This document shows positions 39,001 to 45,000 of a DNA stretch of 64,000 bases, one piece after another. Origin of the DNA: an uncultured Verrucomicrobiae bacterium (lineage in GTDB: Bacteria > Verrucomicrobiota > Verrucomicrobiia > Chthoniobacterales > JAFAMB01). The position numbers are program-made. Every line of letters begins with the position of its first letter. The stretch's first letter is position 1. Location of the stretch: the NCBI GenBank assembly GCA_963813025.1, contig CAWEXO010000005.1:224001-288000 (forward strand), given 5' to 3'.

Positions 39001-42000
39001 CGCTGCTCCCTCCTGGGCTCGCGAGAGCGCGATTGTTTGGAATTTCGCTTCGCGCAGGGCGGCGCGCAGATCGCGTGTGCCTGATACTCTTCCCAGAGCC
39101 CAGCTGAGTCGATCTGCCAAAACGCCGGCCTTTTTTCGTAACCAGCTACTGCTTGGGTCGTGATGCCTTCTGCGCTGATGAAAGCCCCCAGCCTGGCCTC
39201 AAGTGCGGTCTTGCCGAGCTAACGATGGATCGCGCTGCCTTTGACGTGAACCTGGCCGCGCCGGTCACTAAACACAAATCCATTCGCACGTAAATCGAGT
39301 CGGACACCATGAGCCTCCGCTACACCGTGAAACTCCTCCCAACTGGTGGCGTCAATGAATCCTTGTGCAAAGCGCTGGAGCCAACTCTGAAACGATTCCT
39401 GACCTGACCTGGCGGTAATATCGTTGCCTCTTGATTGAGAGCGCTCGTGGCGATCCTGCGCCAAGCCGAGCTCGCATTCCAGGACAGCAGCCAACTTCGA
39501 TCGGGTTTTATAATCCGCGATCCGATCGTGGAGAGTAAATTTCTGCGGATGGATCTTATTGATCGCCACGTGGACGTGCACGTTATCGGTGTCGTGGTGC
39601 ACAACACTCACTCGCTGATGCTCGGCATAGCCTAGCTCGCTGCAGAAACGTTCTTCAATGATCCGCAATGTTTGAGCATCGGGATTTTCGCCGGCGCGCA
39701 ACGAAATCAAGAGATGGTATGTTCGATCAGATTTCGCGCGGGTGTTGAGTTGCTGGGTTGCGCCAATCTCGCGCACGGCCCAGCTGAGTTCGGTCGACAC
39801 ACAATTAGTAAGAGTAATCTCCCCCACCCTGGTTTTCTTGTTCTGGGAATCGACCAGGTAACGAATCAGTTTTCCGAACCGGCTCTTTTCAGGCGTCTTC
39901 AATGTGACCTTTTTAGAAATCATAGATCACCGAGTCGATCGCTCATTTGCTTTTGGAGCGCTCGAACCTGGTTAAGAACACCCTCGAGTTTGCGCTGCAA
40001 CGCCTGGCCGCTGTGCGACTCAAAACTCCTCTCATTTGTCAGCCACATCTTGATTAAACCTCCCAAACGTCCCATGTCCGCATTGATTTTGACCAAGTCG
40101 AGCACGGCCCGCAGCAAACACGGTAACTCTGCTCACTGTTTCCAGTGATAGACTACGGACCTCAGAACTCGAACCCAAAACAAGTGCCGCTGCAGGAGGC
40201 TCGCCGTTGCTGCGCTCCGTCATGCCCCCTCTTGCGGGTATATCTTGTTCGAGCTTCGCTCGTTGCAGCCCGAAGGAGGAAAGTGGGGGCTGCAACAAGC
40301 TCCGCTGTGGCGGATTCCCGTTTCACGAAGATTTGCTTCTCACCGATCACCTGTCACCCGACTCCGCCAGGCCTGCATCACGGTAAACCTTCTCGCTAGT
40401 CACGTTTGGCTACCGGAACTTTCTTGTTAGCTCTACTCTCTTCCTGCGCTTGGTAATACCAGCTGCTGCGGGCCACCCCGCATTGCTGCACGAGGCTCAT
40501 TTTGTCGGCTGGCTGCCGCCGCTGCTGGAGCGTAAAGCCCCGTAATTTTTTCTTTTAAGCCACTCCAGTTCCATTTGAGCCGTCCAATCTGCTCGAACAA
40601 TTCGCTCTCCTGACGTCTGAGTTCCTGGTCGGCCACCCGAATCTCCCCGTCGAAAAATCCGGGGACGCGCCAGAAGACTTTAAAGTTTCTCGGTTCACCC
40701 TTAGCGCCCAAATTGTTTTCCGACGACCTCATGGGTGGACGGTTGACGACGACCTTTTCCGGTCGGCAGAAAACGCGCAAATCCGTTTCGGTCACGATTG
40801 ATTTACAGAACGGAAAAGTGATTCCGGCGATGGGAAAGCTCAAGAGGCCCCGAAGATTGAAGGGCACAAATGAAAACCGTCCTGACCCTCATATTGTTCG
40901 GTGCTTTTGTCTTAACCGGTGTTGCTCAGACACCTGCTGGCGCGGAAACGATCATTAGCGAGGTCGCCAAGAAAACCCCGTGCACCAGCTCAACCGCTCA
41001 GTTTGCCAGGCCGACTTCACCTACTCGATGGCGTTAAACGTCATCAAGATTCGGGATACCGGCAAAGGTGCCAAATCCCCTAGATAAAGTCTTGACGAAA
41101 AAGGGGTGTCGACTCCCCTCGCCTCCAGCTCACTAATCACAAGTGGCTAGATACCAGCTACTTACATATAGGGGATTGGGTCACTCTTCGAAGTGGGCTG
41201 GTAACAGGTCTCCTTAGCTGGTAACGTGGCCACAAACCTCGGGAAGAATGGATATCTTCCAGCTGGCTTTCAAGCCAATCAGGGCAATCGATCGCTGTTC
41301 CCAGCAAGCGAGTAGGTGGAATCAGCATCTCGTTACGCAGAAGTATCTCTACACCGGGACTGGGCAGGTTCAAACAGGTCCAATTACGCTCAATTCAACC
41401 GGGAGTGGATCGGGCGGACAACTTTCGGGCTAATTGTAATTAGCTCTAAGTAACCAAGTTTACTCCTTTCCGGTAGTCCTTGCTTTTTCGTGTTACATCC
41501 GGGGTGGTTTTGGCATTTGTTTCGATGTTAGTTTTCCGTCCCCTTCTGTTTAAATTGCAGAACGAAAGCCAACCCATGCCAGAACATACGGCTGAATTGC
41601 CGGCCGGCCCCGTCGAGGGCGGCGGCGGACGCGTGCATCCTCCGCGTCCGGGAGTCGAGGAATTACCTGCAGGCCCAGTGTATGCCTTTGACCGCGAAGC
41701 GGTCACCGAATTGTTCCGTTTGCGCGACCGCGTACACGCGCTCGAATCCGAGCTGCTGATCATAAAATTTAATCCGCGATCGCCAAGACCCAATCCTCAC
41801 GAACTCCCGCCGATTCGAGATTTCATTCTCCATCGTCCAGGTCCTGGTGCCCCGAATGAACTTCCTCCAGCCGAATTCGGCGAGCTGACGCAGTATATCA
41901 GCGCGATCCTCGAACGGCTCAGTTCTATCGAGGCGAGCATCGCTGCTCTCGGGGCTTCGACGGGTGCCCAAGGACAATAGAGCGGTCATTTGGTCGTGAG

Positions 42001-45000
42001 TCGTAGCCGGGAAGAGCTGGCCGCCTGTTTGAGCCGGCATGGCATTCTTTATGCTTCAGCCGGGCAGCCAATTCGGCATCAGGATCGAACACCTGCGCCG
42101 TGGGCATTTTATAGCTGGAACGCTACCCTGACAGCGCATGGATTGCGTCTTGCTGCGGTCTGCATACTGGAGCGGCTGCGCGGATTCAGGGCCTCCCAGT
42201 TAGCAAGCATCGGTTATACCGGCATACCCCTGCTCTCCGCGTGCGTTCTGCTCGGAGAAGGGCGCTACACTGGCCTTTGCATCCGCGAGAGCCGGAAAAA
42301 ATATGTTTCCTGCCGCCAGGTGGAAGGGCCGTTCGACAAATCTGCCCCGGTTGTGATTATCGATGACTCGGTCAGCTCCGGCAATTCCATCGCAGAAGCC
42401 ATCAGGGCTATCGAGAATGAAGGAGGCGAAGTCGAAGGCGCGATCGCCCTAGTGCAGTTTCCGTATCGAGGTGGCCTCGATTGGGCAAATTCGGCTGGCT
42501 ACCGGGCCGAAGCGATCCTGGATGTCTGGTCCGATCTTGGTATGGCCCGCACGCTGGCTAAGCCTGAACGGCGGCCACCCCCGCTTACTGGCAAGGTCAG
42601 AGCTCCCGAAGGCTTGCACCCGGCAGTGCTGGCCCGGTTTTCAGCGGCCACGTGGCTTGCCACGGGTCTGGCGCCCTCGCCGCCCCTGCAAATGGATCGC
42701 AACTATGCATCCCCGGGAGGGGTCTTTGTCAGCTTTCGTGAGCGCGCTAACGATAACCGAATTGCTCGTAACGGATATTGGCATTTCAATCCGGACGATG
42801 CGGCGCCGTGTGCGGACGTGATTGCGGCAACAATTGAGACACTACGGGATGCGCATGGGCGCATTACACCCCAAACCCTTCCAGAACTCAAAATTGCGGT
42901 CACTTTTTTTTCCGCGCTCGAACTGATTAAGCCCAAAGATCTTGATTTTGAGCGTTACGGTATTGTGGTGCGAAGCCGGGCATTTCCAAGTAAGATGGGC
43001 GGCGCGCTGCCCAACACGCAGGCTTTCATCAGCGAGGTCGAACAATATCGCCAGGCGCGCGTGACCAATGCAGGCATTGAGCCTGGCGAGCCCCACGATC
43101 TATTCCGCCACGAGGTCTTCAAATACGTCGAACCGGGCCAAACGTGGCTGCAGTACGGTTCGCCGGAGAGCGCTGCAGGCTGGTGGCGGACCGCAGAGTG
43201 TGGTCGCCGGATCACAGCCCGTGCTCGGCAGTTATTCGACGAACTGCAGGGTAAAGAGGAACAATCGAAGGAAAAAGAAAGCGCAAGTGCTCCGGCCTCA
43301 GTCGATGCTTTTCCATTGGCCAGTGCGCCGGAGGATATTGGCCGTATCGAAGCGGTCGCGGTCCGCGTCTATCACCCGGACTACGGCCTGATCGGATACG
43401 GATTAGCACTGGGAACCGAGTTCGACGACGCGCTGCGTGCTGCGGTGCTACAGGCGGCCGCTGACCCGCGGGGCGGTTCAGGGTTGACGCGCGGAACGAT
43501 AGTCGTTTCCGTCCTGCACGATCCGGAACTGCTCGGCAGGGCGGCCGTCCAAACTGTCGCATTCAAGCTTCGGCGCGGGCTTGATGCGCTTGAAATCCAC
43601 TATTCCGGCAAAACCACGATTCTCCTGCCATCGGTGCTGGTTTACAACAACCTCACGCGAGCGGAATTCGTCCGGACCTGCGTGCGCTTGGCGGGTGCCG
43701 AGGCTGCAGCCGAAAGTCGCCAGGTCGAATGGCGAACCTTGCAATGCGCCGAATGGGTTGATGATGGCCGGTATACCCACCCTTTGCGGTTCGGCTCTGC
43801 GGTTCGTGATGCCGATACCCTGGATTCCGCCTCTTTGATCCGTTTGCTGGGCACTTACATCGTCGGATCGCTCGGGGCTGACCGCCTGCCGCGTTACATG
43901 CTACAACCGGCCAGCGGCGAGGTGCAGATCTACGGGACTGCCGGACGCGCCATTCACGGATTGATGGCGCTGGACCTCGCAGGGTTATTTCTTGGGGAAC
44001 GGAGTTGGCGGGAGGGGGCTGGCGCCGGCTTCGGTTATTGTCTGGACCATGTGCGGGAGGGTACCATCGTTCTTCCCGGCGTCGTCGGCGGGACGCTTGC
44101 GGACGCGGTTCTCCTTGGCGCGGTCGCTCGCTATAAGGCGCTCAGTCAGCGGGCTGCTTCACGCGCTCTGGCTGCCCGTCTGCGCGGCCTGCTGCGGCCG
44201 GAAGGACGAATCGGGTATACGCCTAAGCGGCTTGAACTGCCGCAGGATCACGAGTTTCTGCCCGGAGCTCTGCTGGCCGGTTTGGCAGATTTCGGGGCTA
44301 TCCAGGATGCCGGCGCGCAGGTTGCATGGTACGCACATCATTTTTCAGCTTTGCCGGGGTGGGGACAGGCCGGCTGGCTGCCGCAGGGTATGGCGGCGTT
44401 GTACCGGGTTACTGCAGATCGGGCGGCGGTTGAACTTGCCTTCGCGGCCACTGATTGGGCCATTGATCGGCAACTAGGGAGTAGCGGTGCGTTTCTTGAA
44501 GATCTCAGCCCGGATGAGCCGAGTTTCAATACGGGTTTTATCGCCGAGGGCGTCGCTGCATCCTGGGAGATTGCGATCGCTGTGGGCGACGTCGAACGAG
44601 CCGCACGCTATGCTGCGGCATGGTCGGCAGCGATGCGGTTTATGACAAACCTGATCGTTTTTCCGGAAGACGTTTTCGCGCTGCGGGCCGGACCAAAGGC
44701 CATTGGCGGTGTGCGCTGTACACTGACGCGTTCAGATATTCGGATCGATCAAGTCAGTCACTGCCTTCATGCGCTGGTAACTGGCGCGCGCCTGCAGCCT
44801 TCTGGGTCGCGTCTTAACATGTACGTGTAACAATTTGCTCAAGAAGCCGGCCCGGCGATCTGGAACGTAGTGCGTACCGAAAATCGTCCCACGGCCTGAA
44901 TCAGGAAAACAAGATAACGCCAAATTAGGAAAAAGGAAAATCGCAATGCCTGTTATCACCCTGTGTCGGCAGTCGAGTCAAAACCAGCCAGTGATGGTCG

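Follow-up and report, generated by a model that had tools for sequence, protein, structure and literature searches.

Known type I phosphoribosyltransferases (PRTases) act on small-molecule acceptors, through a nitrogen or carbon nucleophile, and no enzyme of this type is known to us to use a carboxylate or a protein as acceptor. Lanthipeptide synthetases combine an activating domain with a C-terminal alpha/alpha toroid, and a similar layout, with the candidate precursor gene lying directly upstream, is found at the locus described here. The window analysed is a stretch of 64,000 nucleotides from the genome of an uncultured Verrucomicrobiae bacterium. Two of its genes are best read as specifying an enzyme together with a protein that serves it as dedicated substrate or scaffold, PRPP-dependent modification of the repeat glutamates being the most likely activity; we give this reading a probability of roughly 0.5. 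The pair may offer a route to the function of the poorly understood AMMECR1 domain.

A duplicated two-gene cassette

The cassette spans 3,460 bp (window 41448-44905, forward strand) and is present twice in the genome at 98% identity, bearing out the two near-identical copies reported in the initial annotation; both ORFs were found as it had described them. The second copy (G000:C12:136514-139973, reverse strand) pairs with the first over 3,460 bp, with 76 differences in total, two of which are single-base indels. Borders are sharp at both ends, and the two copies have no other sequence in common within 6-8 kb on either side. Neither terminal inverted or direct repeats at the cassette ends nor a mobility gene inside it were detected.

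41448..44905, forward strand: duplicated 3.46-kb cassette (98% identity to the C12 copy)
36716..39923, reverse strand: left flank, broken TraG coupling-protein and TraI/MobA relaxase genes (Pfam)
45221..45838, reverse strand: right flank, truncated gene for IstB, the IS21 helper ATPase (Pfam IstB_IS21, profile positions 91-236 of 238 only)
41576..41980, forward strand: partner gene, class A "ELP" repeat protein, 134 aa plus stop (start from the indel at 41521 and homologues)
41594..41602, forward strand: ELP motif 1, E7-L8-P9 (E7 and P9 invariant in 17 class A partners)
41660..41668, forward strand: ELP motif 2, E29-L30-P31 (E29 invariant, P31 at least 90% conserved)
41801..41809, forward strand: ELP motif 3, E76-L77-P78 (in most, not all, class A partners)
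41858..41866, forward strand: ELP motif 4, N-E95-L96-P97, the "PNELP" motif (E95 and L96 invariant)
41990..44830, forward strand: enzyme gene, 946 aa (TTG 41990) or 944 aa (GTG 41996), plus stop (ORF)

Both copies lie in regions of IS and conjugation remnants, in agreement with the TraG, TraI, IstB and LigD fragments noted earlier. The left flank in the window holds five broken ORFs with Pfam matches to T4SS-DNA_transf, TraG-D_C, Relaxase, TraI_middle, LPD7 and TraI-like_C. A soil-metagenome contig is 96% identical to window 41448-44873 and diverges beyond it, and comparison of the second copy and metagenome contigs revealed at least three kinds of right-hand context.

The small ORF (end at 41980, forward strand) has candidate starts at 41480, 41525 and 41576. 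A 1-bp indel at 41521 places the stretch 41480-41575 in differing frames in the two copies, and therefore the start was assigned to ATG 41576, correcting the earlier choice of 41525. This assignment fits the homologues: in the 16 class A proteins checked from other loci, the chosen start is an ATG, the last Met before the first ELP, 4-16 residues (mostly 4-7) upstream of it. The window protein has four E-L-P motifs, one stretch rich in Gly and two helix-like segments that are conserved, and it matches no Pfam or NCBIfam family. Its 147 class A homologues are all named "hypothetical". Glu is invariant in three of the class A ELP motifs, and the PNELP motif is followed by EGGEGGGGG in most homologues. 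Where the initial annotation names a coiled coil, the class A alignment shows only these two conserved stretches, which appear amphipathic as well as helix-like.

Comparison of the copies shows purifying selection on both genes (pN/pS 0.145 for the partner and 0.198 for the enzyme). The TTG start of the enzyme lies 9 nt past the stop codon of the partner, and the two genes are probably translationally coupled. In a metatranscriptome run, three contigs were 93-96% identical to 41581-42468, one of them spanning the junction of the two genes; this is a weak hint of expression, because such contigs are not proof of a single transcript and DNA can occur in RNA libraries.

Domain architecture of the enzyme

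The enzyme has 313 homologues of like length. Its full-length AF2 model (pLDDT 92, pTM 0.91) contains four domains, namely an OPRTase-type phosphoribosyltransferase, two AMMECR1-like domains and an (alpha/alpha)6 toroid.

41990..42559, forward strand: domain 1, residues 1-190, OPRTase-type (type I) phosphoribosyltransferase (NCBIfam, PDB profile, VIA, Foldseek)
42284..42298, forward strand: flexible catalytic loop R99-E-S-R-K103 (R99 and K103 invariant in 43 sequences)
42350..42388, forward strand: PRPP-binding loop VVIIDDSVSSGNS, residues 121-133 (conservation in 43 sequences and alignment to 2p1z)
42605..43189, forward strand: domain 2, residues 206-400, AMMECR1-like domain A (Pfam PF01871)
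43190..43345, forward strand: long helix (402-428), then linker (429-452), little conserved and of low confidence (pLDDT 50-67, no invariant column)
43346..43789, forward strand: domain 3, residues 453-600, AMMECR1-like domain B, weakly conserved (TIGR04335, 1vaj/1zq7)
43790..44827, forward strand: domain 4, residues 601-946, (alpha/alpha)6 six-hairpin toroid (domain model pLDDT 93)

Domain 1 matched NCBIfam pyrE over residues 47-157 (E 2.8e-12, under the curated cutoff) and 2p1z in a PDB profile search (E 1.1e-16). Structural comparison by VIA superposed 168/168 residues on 2p1z and 5hki (Z 25, rmsd 1.6 A), and Foldseek matched OPRTases with a TMt of 0.91-0.93. In the profile alignment the R99-K103 loop falls on the RKEAKxHG loop of solved OPRTases, and VVIIDDSVSSGNS aligns with VLVVEDTTTTGNS of 2p1z. 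Within the PRPP loop D126, S130 and G131 are invariant across the 43 sequences, while V121, D125, S127 and S129 are at least 90% conserved. Judged by sequence, the PRPP loop is intact. Like the flexible loop with its Arg and Lys, it is invariant across the 43 sequences, and use of PRPP by the enzyme is plausible.

AMMECR1-like domain A (PF01871 at residues 236-367, 40.6 bits against a cutoff of 25) is the most conserved part of the protein, with 28 invariant columns (14.4 per 100 aa). Domain B has two invariant columns; it matched NCBIfam TIGR04335 at residues 479-585 (E 2.7e-8), and PDB profiles of 1vaj at 457-564 (E 1.1e-12) and 1zq7 at 415-568 (about 1e-12). The OPRTase, AMMECR1 and toroid domains of the initial annotation were recovered, and its "further alpha/beta domain" is this second AMMECR1-like domain. 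Its Foldseek matches to OPRTase and AMMECR1 structures were reproduced on the new model, and MstE was again the top match of the toroid, but a weak one (E 2e-5, TM 0.56). By VIA, Z scores of 22-24 were obtained alike for GH76, drimenyl-PP synthase, squalene-hopene cyclase, YteR, UGL, cellobiose 2-epimerase and AprG. A Pfam search of the toroid returned nothing at E up to 1. As modelled, it is a generic toroid of no recognised family.

Repeat proteins beside the enzyme gene

Of 52 species-genome loci, 49 have a repeat protein encoded next to the enzyme gene, and the 18 of 41 loci counted previously was too low. Nineteen of these proteins are class A homologues of the window's ELP protein and the remaining 30 are spread over about nine repeat classes; in all there are at least ten classes, unrelated-looking in sequence and with up to about 110 repeat units. 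The three loci lacking a partner are L039, L048 and L055, the last being cut by a contig end. Usually the partner lies on the same strand and ends 13-305 nt ahead of the enzyme match start. It is farther upstream in L017, L053 and L044, on the opposite strand in L029, and downstream in L033, L056 and the seven Thermoanaerobaculia loci, where it follows the enzyme directly and overlaps its stop codon in at least two.

A class A HMM run against every six-frame ORF of at least 40 aa from the 52 loci matched 20 ORFs in 19 loci (5 of these loci outside the seed alignment), each being the adjoining upstream ORF, and no further match occurred in that set. A crude repeat score (10 or more acidic-hydrophobic dipeptides per 60 aa) was reached by a flanking ORF in 17/52 loci, compared with 1/2,552 distant ORFs. 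Partner class and enzyme have co-diversified: class changed 12 times on the enzyme tree versus 27.4 times in shuffles (0/200 as low), a statistic that overstates independence since kin carry the same labels. The class A clade (support 100) unites Actinomycetota, Acidobacteriota, Pseudomonadota and the window's own lineage. Besides the repeat partner, no other conserved neighbour family was found near the enzyme. The pairing, the tracking of the tree by class and this lack of further neighbours strengthen the initial proposal that the two genes form a self-contained unit, with the small repeat protein as the target of the big enzyme.

The partners share a repeat core, in which an acidic residue precedes a hydrophobic one, often with P, G or A alongside. 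This core occurs in class A (P-x-E-L-P) and in the PEVG/PEIG, ERPELP/ERPEFP, ETPEIP, VVEIAGP, PDFVD, PIPEVIYEA and RVEARP classes. The acidic residue is almost always Glu and the next aliphatic or aromatic; repeats of the Acidimicrobiia class are mostly ELE, DSD and ESE, and L057 has Asp. The motif is loose, and composition alone (acidic, disordered) could matter; enzyme net charge did not track partner acidity.

Proposed activity and alternatives

We infer that the partner is the substrate, PRPP the co-substrate and Glu the acceptor. The N-terminal OPRTase-type domain would bind PRPP and hand 5-phosphoribose to the partner motif, giving a Glu-gamma-(5-phosphoribosyl) ester; this product is proposed because no side chain other than the Glu/Asp carboxylate recurs in every partner class. 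AMMECR1-like domain A and the sugar- or terpenoid-type toroid would next bind or further process the ribosylated residue, in a modification that is possibly RiPP-like. The hints of peptide modification in side lineages, described below, also count in favour of this reading. A preprint (10.1101/2023.10.12.562112) offers a chemical precedent: it describes proteins with phosphoribosylated Asp/Glu, on which a PRTase, NAMPT, acts.

One alternative, which we consider unlikely, is that the enzyme makes or modifies a small molecule from PRPP (a nucleobase, nucleotide or isoprenoid-linked sugar phosphate), with the repeat protein serving as regulator, inhibitor, chaperone, or cation- or product-binding polyanion. 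To our knowledge all characterised type I PRTases have small-molecule substrates, and Burroughs et al. in 2019 reportedly connected Memo-AMMECR1 contexts with the modification of bases and isoprenoids. The toroid is similar to enzymes that process sugars and terpenoids, and the His-rich tails of one partner class suggest metal binding. AMMECR1-toroid proteins that lack the PRTase also exist (those placed in context are exported); in 29 loci they have no repeat partner, a polytopic membrane protein coming next instead, and thus the AMMECR1-toroid core does not in general need a repeat protein. However, a small-molecule substrate leaves unexplained both the same acidic-hydrophobic core in unrelated-looking partners and the invariant ELP Glu of class A, and conserved small-molecule pathway genes were not found nearby.

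A second alternative, likewise improbable, is that the repeat protein serves as a multi-core precursor or scaffold and releases many copies of a small modified peptide, or of an amino-acid-derived metabolite built from Glu and ribose-phosphate carbon, so that the modified protein is not itself the end product. The order of an upstream precursor and a C-terminal toroid recalls lanthipeptide synthetases, and several peptide-modification hints were found, all below curated cutoffs or limited to one lineage. Both L044 partner paralogues weakly matched three NHLP-clan RiPP leader models (E 3e-4 to 5e-3, below cutoff), and the L017 and L053 partners have weakly LigA- or IniB-N-like N-termini. An 877-aa LanB-N-like protein and a 2OG oxygenase are encoded downstream in L017 and L053, the oxygenase also occurring in L044 and L048, but accessory genes of this RiPP-like kind occur in a single acidobacterial lineage only. 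In one family member (P0135) a C-terminal kinase domain best matches LxmK, a class V lanthionine synthetase kinase (E 4.5e-30, below cutoff). Against release of peptides, no conserved protease, transporter or immunity gene was found beside the pair, some repeat units span just 3-4 residues and lack any spacer or cleavage motif, and class A partners have only 4-7 motifs each together with conserved helical segments.

The initial annotation had favoured an anti-phage or other conflict system on mobile DNA, a role that the present results do not support and that we now regard as quite improbable. Part of the case for mobility holds: the cassette is patchy (1/200 other genomes of the same order), its class A clade crosses four phyla, right-hand flanks differ among metagenome contigs, and both copies here sit amid IS and conjugation remnants. 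However, no mobility gene or terminal repeat accompanies it, and its neighbours in 12 other genomes are ordinary chromosomal ones, the nearest 66 ORFs being housekeeping or assorted genes with no transposase, integrase or relaxase among them. Neither protein matches a PADLOC family; among 113 neighbour ORFs in the 12 loci, 9 matched PADLOC through single generic domains only and formed no system. A tblastn search of 72,556 plasmid and 50,697 phage records detected no copy, and in the enzyme Pfam and NCBIfam revealed no effector domain of the nuclease, protease, pore or NADase type.

That the adjacency has no functional meaning, the repeat ORFs being spurious frames in repetitive, GC-rich intergenic DNA, is very improbable: in high-GC genomes more than one frame is open across the repeats, and partner ORFs are frameshifted in L010, L011, L019, L046 and L052, but most loci show direct same-strand adjacency, codon-position GC (GC2 lowest) agrees with the chosen frames of the hyper-repeat ORFs, the class A family numbers 147 called proteins, selection has preserved the window's small gene, and the same peptide motif arises from unrelated-looking repeat DNAs.

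The cassette, its copies and its mobility

Two ORFs on the same strand had been placed here by the initial annotation, and both are present. The small ORF (+) stops with TAG at 41978-41980 and the large one starts 9 nt further on.

Features of the cassette, in window positions
41448-44905, + strand: two-gene cassette
41576-41980, + strand: small gene, encoding the partner, a predicted 134-aa protein with ELP repeats
41990-44830, + strand: large gene, encoding the enzyme, from TTG 41990 (946 aa) or GTG 41996 (944 aa) by ORF reading

A second copy lies on the minus strand of contig C12 (136514-139973). 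The copies share precisely window 41448-44905, aligned over 3,460 bases at 98% identity with 76 differences; both borders are abrupt, and no further similarity between C12 and C5, the contig of the window, was found within 6-8 kb beyond the cassette. Because one of the two indels that distinguish the copies, at 41521, puts 41480-41575 out of frame between them, the predicted start of the small gene must be ATG 41576 (134 aa). This start explains the length of 133-151 aa first ascribed to the small protein. The 16 homologous partners from other loci (class A) that were checked agree with it, the start chosen in each, taken as the last Met preceding the first ELP, being an ATG 4-16 residues (mostly 4-7) ahead of that motif. 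A pN/pS of 0.145 for the small gene and of 0.198 for the large gene, computed from the two copies, indicates that selection maintains both genes. The pS value is 3.7-fold higher in the small gene (0.115 over 41576-41977) than in the large gene (0.031 over 41996-44827), possibly reflecting gene conversion or recombination inside the cassette, or faster-changing repeat-coding DNA.

A scan of 41000-45300 for promoter and terminator consensus sequences found nothing convincing on the + strand 5' of 41576, and past 44830 no terminator was found. In a metatranscriptome run, three contigs match the small gene and the 5' part of the large gene at 93-96% identity, and one of them spans the junction; this is a weak hint that a close relative of the cassette is expressed. 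The highest share of the cassette's sampled words in any sequencing run was 0.26.

Both copies lie in scrambled DNA. Around the window copy, the TraG and TraI genes are broken, IstB is truncated and an integrase is split, with fragments of Tn3 and LigD and an IS630-type transposase nearby; the C12 copy has IS630 and fragments of rve, a ligase and a squalene cyclase around it. Conjugation genes occur in the window as two sets, shattered TraG and TraI at 36716-39923 (minus strand) and an intact 617-aa TraG coupling protein with a C-terminal piece of TraI at 55440-57878 (minus strand), suggesting two decayed conjugative elements or one that was duplicated. Outside the duplicated unit, 2.7 kb downstream of the cassette, an 836-aa ORF without a Pfam family (47572-50082, + strand) is directly followed by an IS630-type transposase (50105-51202). 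Further pieces of mobile DNA at 21820-23031, 24599-25560, 35870-36232 and 51505-54791 comprise a Tn3-type DUF4158 fragment, a tyrosine integrase in two ORFs, a LigD primase-polymerase fragment, TniQ, and parts of IS4-like, Mutator and IS110 transposases. The region is a zone where mobile DNA accumulates.

Searches returned 313 enzyme homologues of like length, named hypothetical, 'AMMECR1 domain-containing' or 'orotate phosphoribosyltransferase', and 52 enzyme loci among about 186,000 species genomes (one genome per species). The carriers belong to Acidobacteriota, Actinomycetota, Alpha-, Beta- and Gammaproteobacteria, Chloroflexota, Thermodesulfobacteriota and Vulcanimicrobiota, together with one Chthoniobacterales MAG (locus L008, genome G189). 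This MAG is of the same family as the window genome and is the sole carrier among 200 other genomes of the order; a genome of the same genus (79% complete) gave no enzyme match. Cultured carriers include Paraburkholderia humisilvae, Dyella subtropica, Collimonas arenae, Microbacterium deminutum, Hamadaea tsunoensis and Actinomycetospora endophytica. The ESM Atlas returned nothing but the enzyme family's own clusters, and tblastn of the enzyme against plasmid and phage collections gave no match.

The initial annotation had regarded the cassette as mobile, and its horizontal transfer is real, as seen from the patchy distribution, a clade that crosses phyla and at least three kinds of right-hand flank (C5; C12; contigs from two soil runs that diverge at 44873). 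The cassette does not, however, behave as an element of its own: it encodes the partner and the enzyme only, with neither the transposase nor the integrase of an autonomous mobile element, and no terminal inverted or direct repeats were found at 41448 or 44905. Among 66 neighbour ORFs of 12 loci there was no transposase, integrase or relaxase. The cassette looks like cargo.

Domain architecture of the enzyme

The enzyme was modelled with AF2 from an alignment of 43 sequences (pLDDT 92, pTM 0.91), which resolved four domains.

Domains of the enzyme, in residues of the 946-aa form
1-190: domain 1, OPRTase-type PRTase (NCBIfam pyrE, PDB profile, the structure comparison VIA, Foldseek)
206-400: domain 2, AMMECR1-A (Pfam PF01871 at 236-367, 40.6 bits against a gathering cutoff of 25)
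453-600: domain 3, AMMECR1-B, weakly conserved (TIGR04335, E 2.7e-8; 1vaj and 1zq7, E about 1e-12 by PDB profile)
601-946: domain 4, (alpha/alpha)6 toroid of twelve helices (AF2; pLDDT 93 when folded alone)

Domain 1 matches NCBIfam pyrE at E 2.8e-12 and, by PDB profile, 2p1z at E 1.1e-16. Its closest solved structures are the small actinobacterial OPRTases 2p1z and 5hki, to which its fold compares with a VIA Z of 25 and an rmsd of 1.6 Å over 168 of 168 residues; Foldseek gave E 6e-10 and TMt 0.91, and both PRTase core and hood are present. In type I PRTases the PRPP loop has a hydrophobic run and two acidic residues followed by a small-residue S/T-G-x-S/T stretch, and such a loop was found at residues 121-133 (VVIIDDSVSSGNS), where it aligns with the loop of 2p1z and where D126, S130 and G131 are the same in all 43 sequences. 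R99 and K103 of the flexible loop are invariant or nearly so in these sequences and line up with the equivalent residues of solved OPRTases. The orotate-binding Arg does not line up cleanly in the profile alignment, where the VDR motif of 2p1z has its Arg two positions off the conserved Arg that the enzyme family has in FPxRGG. Modelled fold and motifs identify domain 1 as a type I PRTase, and the enzyme retains every sequence feature needed for PRPP binding. Domain 1 shares with PyrE its fold, PRPP loop and Arg/Lys flexible loop, whereas it differs in forming the N-terminal part of a 946-aa protein encoded alongside a repeat protein and not alongside pyrimidine-synthesis genes. Assignment as a PyrE equivalog was rejected, with scores far under the curated cutoffs of all pyrE models (TIGR00336, 46.7 bits against 106.8).

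AMMECR1-A is the best-conserved region of the enzyme, with 28 invariant columns. Domain 3 had been noted initially as a further alpha/beta domain; a domain is indeed found there, but the TIGR04335, 1vaj and 1zq7 matches identify it as a second AMMECR1-like domain. The enzyme belongs to the AMMECR1 family, as two of its domains match the models and structures of that family (PF01871; 1vaj, 1zq7, 1wsc), and it is distinguished by carrying the two in tandem, fused to a PRTase and a toroid. Against TIGR04335 (AmmeMemoRadiSam system protein A) it scores 33.4 bits, with a cutoff of 99. No Memo or radical SAM family was found among 45 scanned window ORFs or, across 12 loci, among the 66 closest neighbour ORFs, and therefore the cassette is not an AmmeMemoRadiSam system. 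The AMMECR1 domain is conserved from archaea to humans and is mutated in a human developmental syndrome; Memo-AMMECR1 was reportedly studied by Burroughs et al. in 2019. No biochemical function of AMMECR1 was found in the literature searched: the papers listed since 2018 are clinical or expression studies, and AMMECR1 together with radical SAM and Memo receives passing mention at most.

The toroid is related by fold to many enzymes, none of which stands out. GH76, drimenyl-diphosphate synthase, squalene-hopene cyclase, YteR, UGL, cellobiose 2-epimerase and AprG all tie at VIA Z 22-24 over 270-310 residues, and Foldseek places MstE first, with a weak match (E 2e-5, TM 0.56); GH88/GH105 and GlcNAc 2-epimerases are likewise alike in fold. 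The toroid has no Pfam match, and LANC_like is absent at E up to 1. A DxDD motif is absent from the window protein and occurs in 5 of 43 family sequences, at non-equivalent positions; no Cys column of the toroid is at least 80% conserved in the 43. The zinc ligands of LanC-like cyclases are Cys, Cys and His. Since both the DxDD general-acid motif and the zinc ligands were looked for and are not conserved, the toroid is neither a class II terpene cyclase nor a LanC-like cyclase, the latter also lacking support from the LANC_like profile. With many families tied, no Pfam match, no conserved DxDD and no conserved Cys, it is by its modelled fold a member of the six-hairpin (alpha/alpha)6 superfamily without a recognised family.

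A toroid profile search returned 2,334 proteins, including AMMECR1-toroid proteins of about 600-650 aa that lack the PRTase and have signal-peptide-like N-termini. The existence of such proteins indicates that AMMECR1 plus toroid is an older module and that the window enzyme family gained the PRTase and the second AMMECR1. No longer fused forms of the enzyme (1,657-4,730 aa) were found at E 1e-10, a search that counts as weak evidence, and two insert-bearing family members (P0137, P0215) contain no partner-like repeats. One entry of the representative library (P0135, 1,370 aa), either a true family member or two adjacent genes read through, carries a C-terminal APH-type kinase domain, whose best match is LxmK, a kinase of class V lanthionine synthetases (NF038156, E 4.5e-30, under cutoff). 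A sample of 400 genomes from the class of G201, which holds locus L028, did not reveal the genomic context of P0135 and yielded only a stand-alone LxmK-like kinase.

Repeat proteins encoded beside the enzyme

The DNA around all 52 enzyme loci was examined, and in 49 of them a repeat protein adjoins the enzyme gene (19 class A and 30 hyper-repetitive). Class A partners are encoded directly upstream of the enzyme and are homologous to the small protein of the window. An HMM built for this class gave 20 matches in the 19 loci, five of which lie outside the seeds; all matches were adjacent ORFs, with none elsewhere in six frames. Columns invariant in 17 class A sequences are the start Met, E7, P9, E29, E95, L96 and three residues of the central helix, and E7, E29 and E95 are the Glu of three ELP motifs. 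The hyper-repetitive neighbours have no detectable sequence similarity to class A.

Repeat motifs of the hyper-repetitive partners, with their loci
PEVG/PEIG, up to 628 aa with 112 motifs: L028, L034, L035, L042
ERPELP/ERPEFP: L041, L049
ETPEIP/EVPEIP, after an N-terminal domain of roughly 100 aa: L017, L053, L044 (two paralogues), L029 (opposite strand)
VVEIAGP/VVEFAGP, with His-rich tails: L043, L047, L051, L058
IEPGVYPP, then ELE, DSD and ESE runs: six Acidimicrobiia-type loci
PDFVDNPDAP: L057
ERPE, DIVEVVERPE or PEGPEAPEHPE, just downstream of the enzyme (overlapping its stop in at least two loci): seven Thermoanaerobaculia loci
PIPEVIYEAPPR, downstream of the enzyme: L056
RVEARPK, downstream of the enzyme: L033

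Position-specific counts define a shared core, consisting of an acidic residue (63-100% Glu by class; Asp in L057) followed by L/I/V/F, with Pro at -1 or -2 in six classes and P/G/A/V at +2. At least 10 acidic-hydrophobic dipeptides per 60 aa occur in a flanking ORF in 17 of the 52 loci, against one of 2,552 ORFs more than 3.5 kb away. Codon-position GC, lowest at the second position, agrees with the reading frames chosen for the hyper-repetitive ORFs. Six-frame and three-frame inspection of the other three loci (L039, L048 and L055, the last cut by a contig end) found no repeat partner. All-against-all clustering of neighbour ORFs gave no other conserved neighbour family; one cluster from 31 loci consists of minus-strand ORFs over the enzyme gene, which were read as antisense shadows and not as genes.

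A quick maximum-likelihood tree was built from 45 enzymes; on it the partner classes require 12 changes, compared with a mean of 27.4 after shuffling. Class A, PEVG, VVEIAGP and the Acidimicrobiia class require one change each, and the class A clade mixes four phyla. Because kin share labels, this mapping shows co-inheritance of the pair and not independent replication. Net charge and pI of the enzyme show no trend with partner class.

The L035 partner matches the trypanosome procyclins (Pfam Trypan_PARP, E 8e-14, under cutoff), to which it is alike in its acidic Pro/Glu repeats. The match is compositional only, and the partners differ in being bacterial, without signal peptide or anchor, and marked by the adjoining enzyme gene. 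The C-termini of the VVEIAGP-class partners are long tails rich in His, Asp, Gly and Ser, suggestive of metal binding. Five partner genes are split over two frames (L010:4157-4630, L011:9514-9845, L019:12785-13304, L046:9171-9977, L052:9312-9981), which might reflect either misassembly of the repeats or genuine decay.

Candidate function of the pair

In our assessment the pair is a real and conserved two-gene system that had not been described before and that no known system matches in kind. In the literature searched, which excluded supplements, no paper treated the enzyme family or a PRTase-containing peptide- or protein-modifying enzyme, and phosphoribosyltransferase together with AMMECR1 or with RiPP precursor peptides led to irrelevant papers only. 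Near-obligate pairing and a Glu-centred motif shared by seemingly unrelated repeat proteins form a strong genome-based pointer to a specific substrate, and suggest protein or peptide modification with PRPP as donor and Glu as acceptor, for which no enzyme has been described.

Since the features for PRPP binding are kept, and since the sole trait common to the partners is the Glu-centred motif, in 4 to about 110 repeats, the simplest reading would be an enzyme with a dedicated multi-site protein substrate. We put the probability that the partner is the substrate or scaffold of the enzyme at about 0.5. In such a system the phosphoribosyl group would be moved from PRPP to the motif Glu, and the product would be bound or processed by AMMECR1-A and by the toroid, which has sugar- or terpenoid-handling relatives. 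Several partner classes (PEVG, ERPELP) have no modifiable side chain besides Glu. Phosphoribosylation of Glu specifically seems to us rather doubtful, and the fullest form of the proposal, a novel protein modification with ribose 5-phosphate on every Glu of E-hydrophobic-Pro/Gly/Ala repeats and with AMMECR1 acting on the ribosylated carboxylate, is unlikely. If it were true, the repeat protein would become a sugar-phosphate polyanion anchored on protein, or feedstock for a new class of RiPP, and AMMECR1 would gain its first biochemical activity. A complex prediction of enzyme residues 1-938 with partner residues 1-62, using both alignments, scored 0.00 in two runs without controls and speaks neither way. 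With its obvious candidate substrate and cultured carriers, this two-gene bacterial system makes the biochemical function of AMMECR1 directly testable.

We know of no precedent for direct transfer from PRPP to a carboxylate. Protein Asp/Glu ADP-ribosylation is carried out by PARPs. A preprint (10.1101/2023.10.12.562112) describes phosphoribose esters on protein Asp/Glu as a known chemical species and reports that NAMPT, itself a PRTase, acts on phosphoribosylated Asp/Glu. This 'protein phosphoribosylase' resembles the proposed activity in that a PRTase handles a ribose-phosphate ester on acidic residues; in the PARP/NAMPT systems the donor is NAD+ and the PRTase takes the group off, whereas the window pair would use direct transfer from PRPP.

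A RiPP-type or scaffold pathway is a close variant of the substrate reading and not our main claim. It draws on the LxmK-like kinase fused to P0135, on a LanB-N-like protein and 2OG oxygenases that adjoin acidobacterial loci, and on partner N-termini that resemble NHLP-clan leaders (L044) or LigA (L017, L053). These peptide-modification hints are all under curated cutoffs or limited to one lineage, and no protease or transporter is conserved beside the pair. The NHLP-clan leader matches are weak, under cutoff and confined to the L044 partners; the window partner has no family. Lanthipeptide synthetases (LanM, LanKC, LanL; class V LxmK/LxmX/LxmY) are similar in combining a big multi-domain enzyme, a C-terminal alpha/alpha toroid and a peptide-substrate gene directly upstream. 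They differ in that the window toroid has no LANC_like match or conserved Cys, the partners have no Cys and often no Ser/Thr, and the putative activating domain is a PRTase and not a kinase or dehydratase. In its proposed mode of action, the pair is closest to synthetases of the lanthipeptide type that have their precursor encoded upstream, and to ribosylation of Asp/Glu on proteins. The acidobacterial genes in question are an 877-aa LanB-N-like protein and/or a 2OG-Fe(II) oxygenase beside the enzyme (L017:13766-16396 and 16308-17231, L053 syntenic, L044:10221-10982); the two partner paralogues of L044 lie at 4097-5278 and 5618-6595.

The enzyme might instead work on a small molecule and not on the repeat protein, a less likely reading kept in view by the exported AMMECR1-toroid relatives, which lack repeat partners. 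In the 29 metagenome loci examined out of 36 (the short, cut or duplicate L066, L068, L085, L087, L094, L097 and L098 were left out), no acidic repeat neighbour was found (top score 9), indicating that the AMMECR1-toroid core does not always work on repeat proteins. What follows the exported gene instead, directly 3' on the same strand in at least seven loci of this family (L063-L096), is a polytopic membrane protein of 660-860 aa without a Pfam family (e.g. L073:5001-6701 then 6717-8711; L079:1604-3328 then 3341-5416). The exported proteins may represent a second use of the module.

The anti-phage or conflict system favoured by the initial annotation finds no support, as neither protein belongs to a PADLOC family (best match in PADLOC-DB 2.0, PRTase_III-A, E 0.055 over 32 residues) and the neighbours include no system, 9 of 113 neighbour ORFs having generic domain matches only. 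Neighbours in 12 loci are ordinary chromosomal genes such as TsaD, QueA, UvrC, PurH, transporters and regulators.
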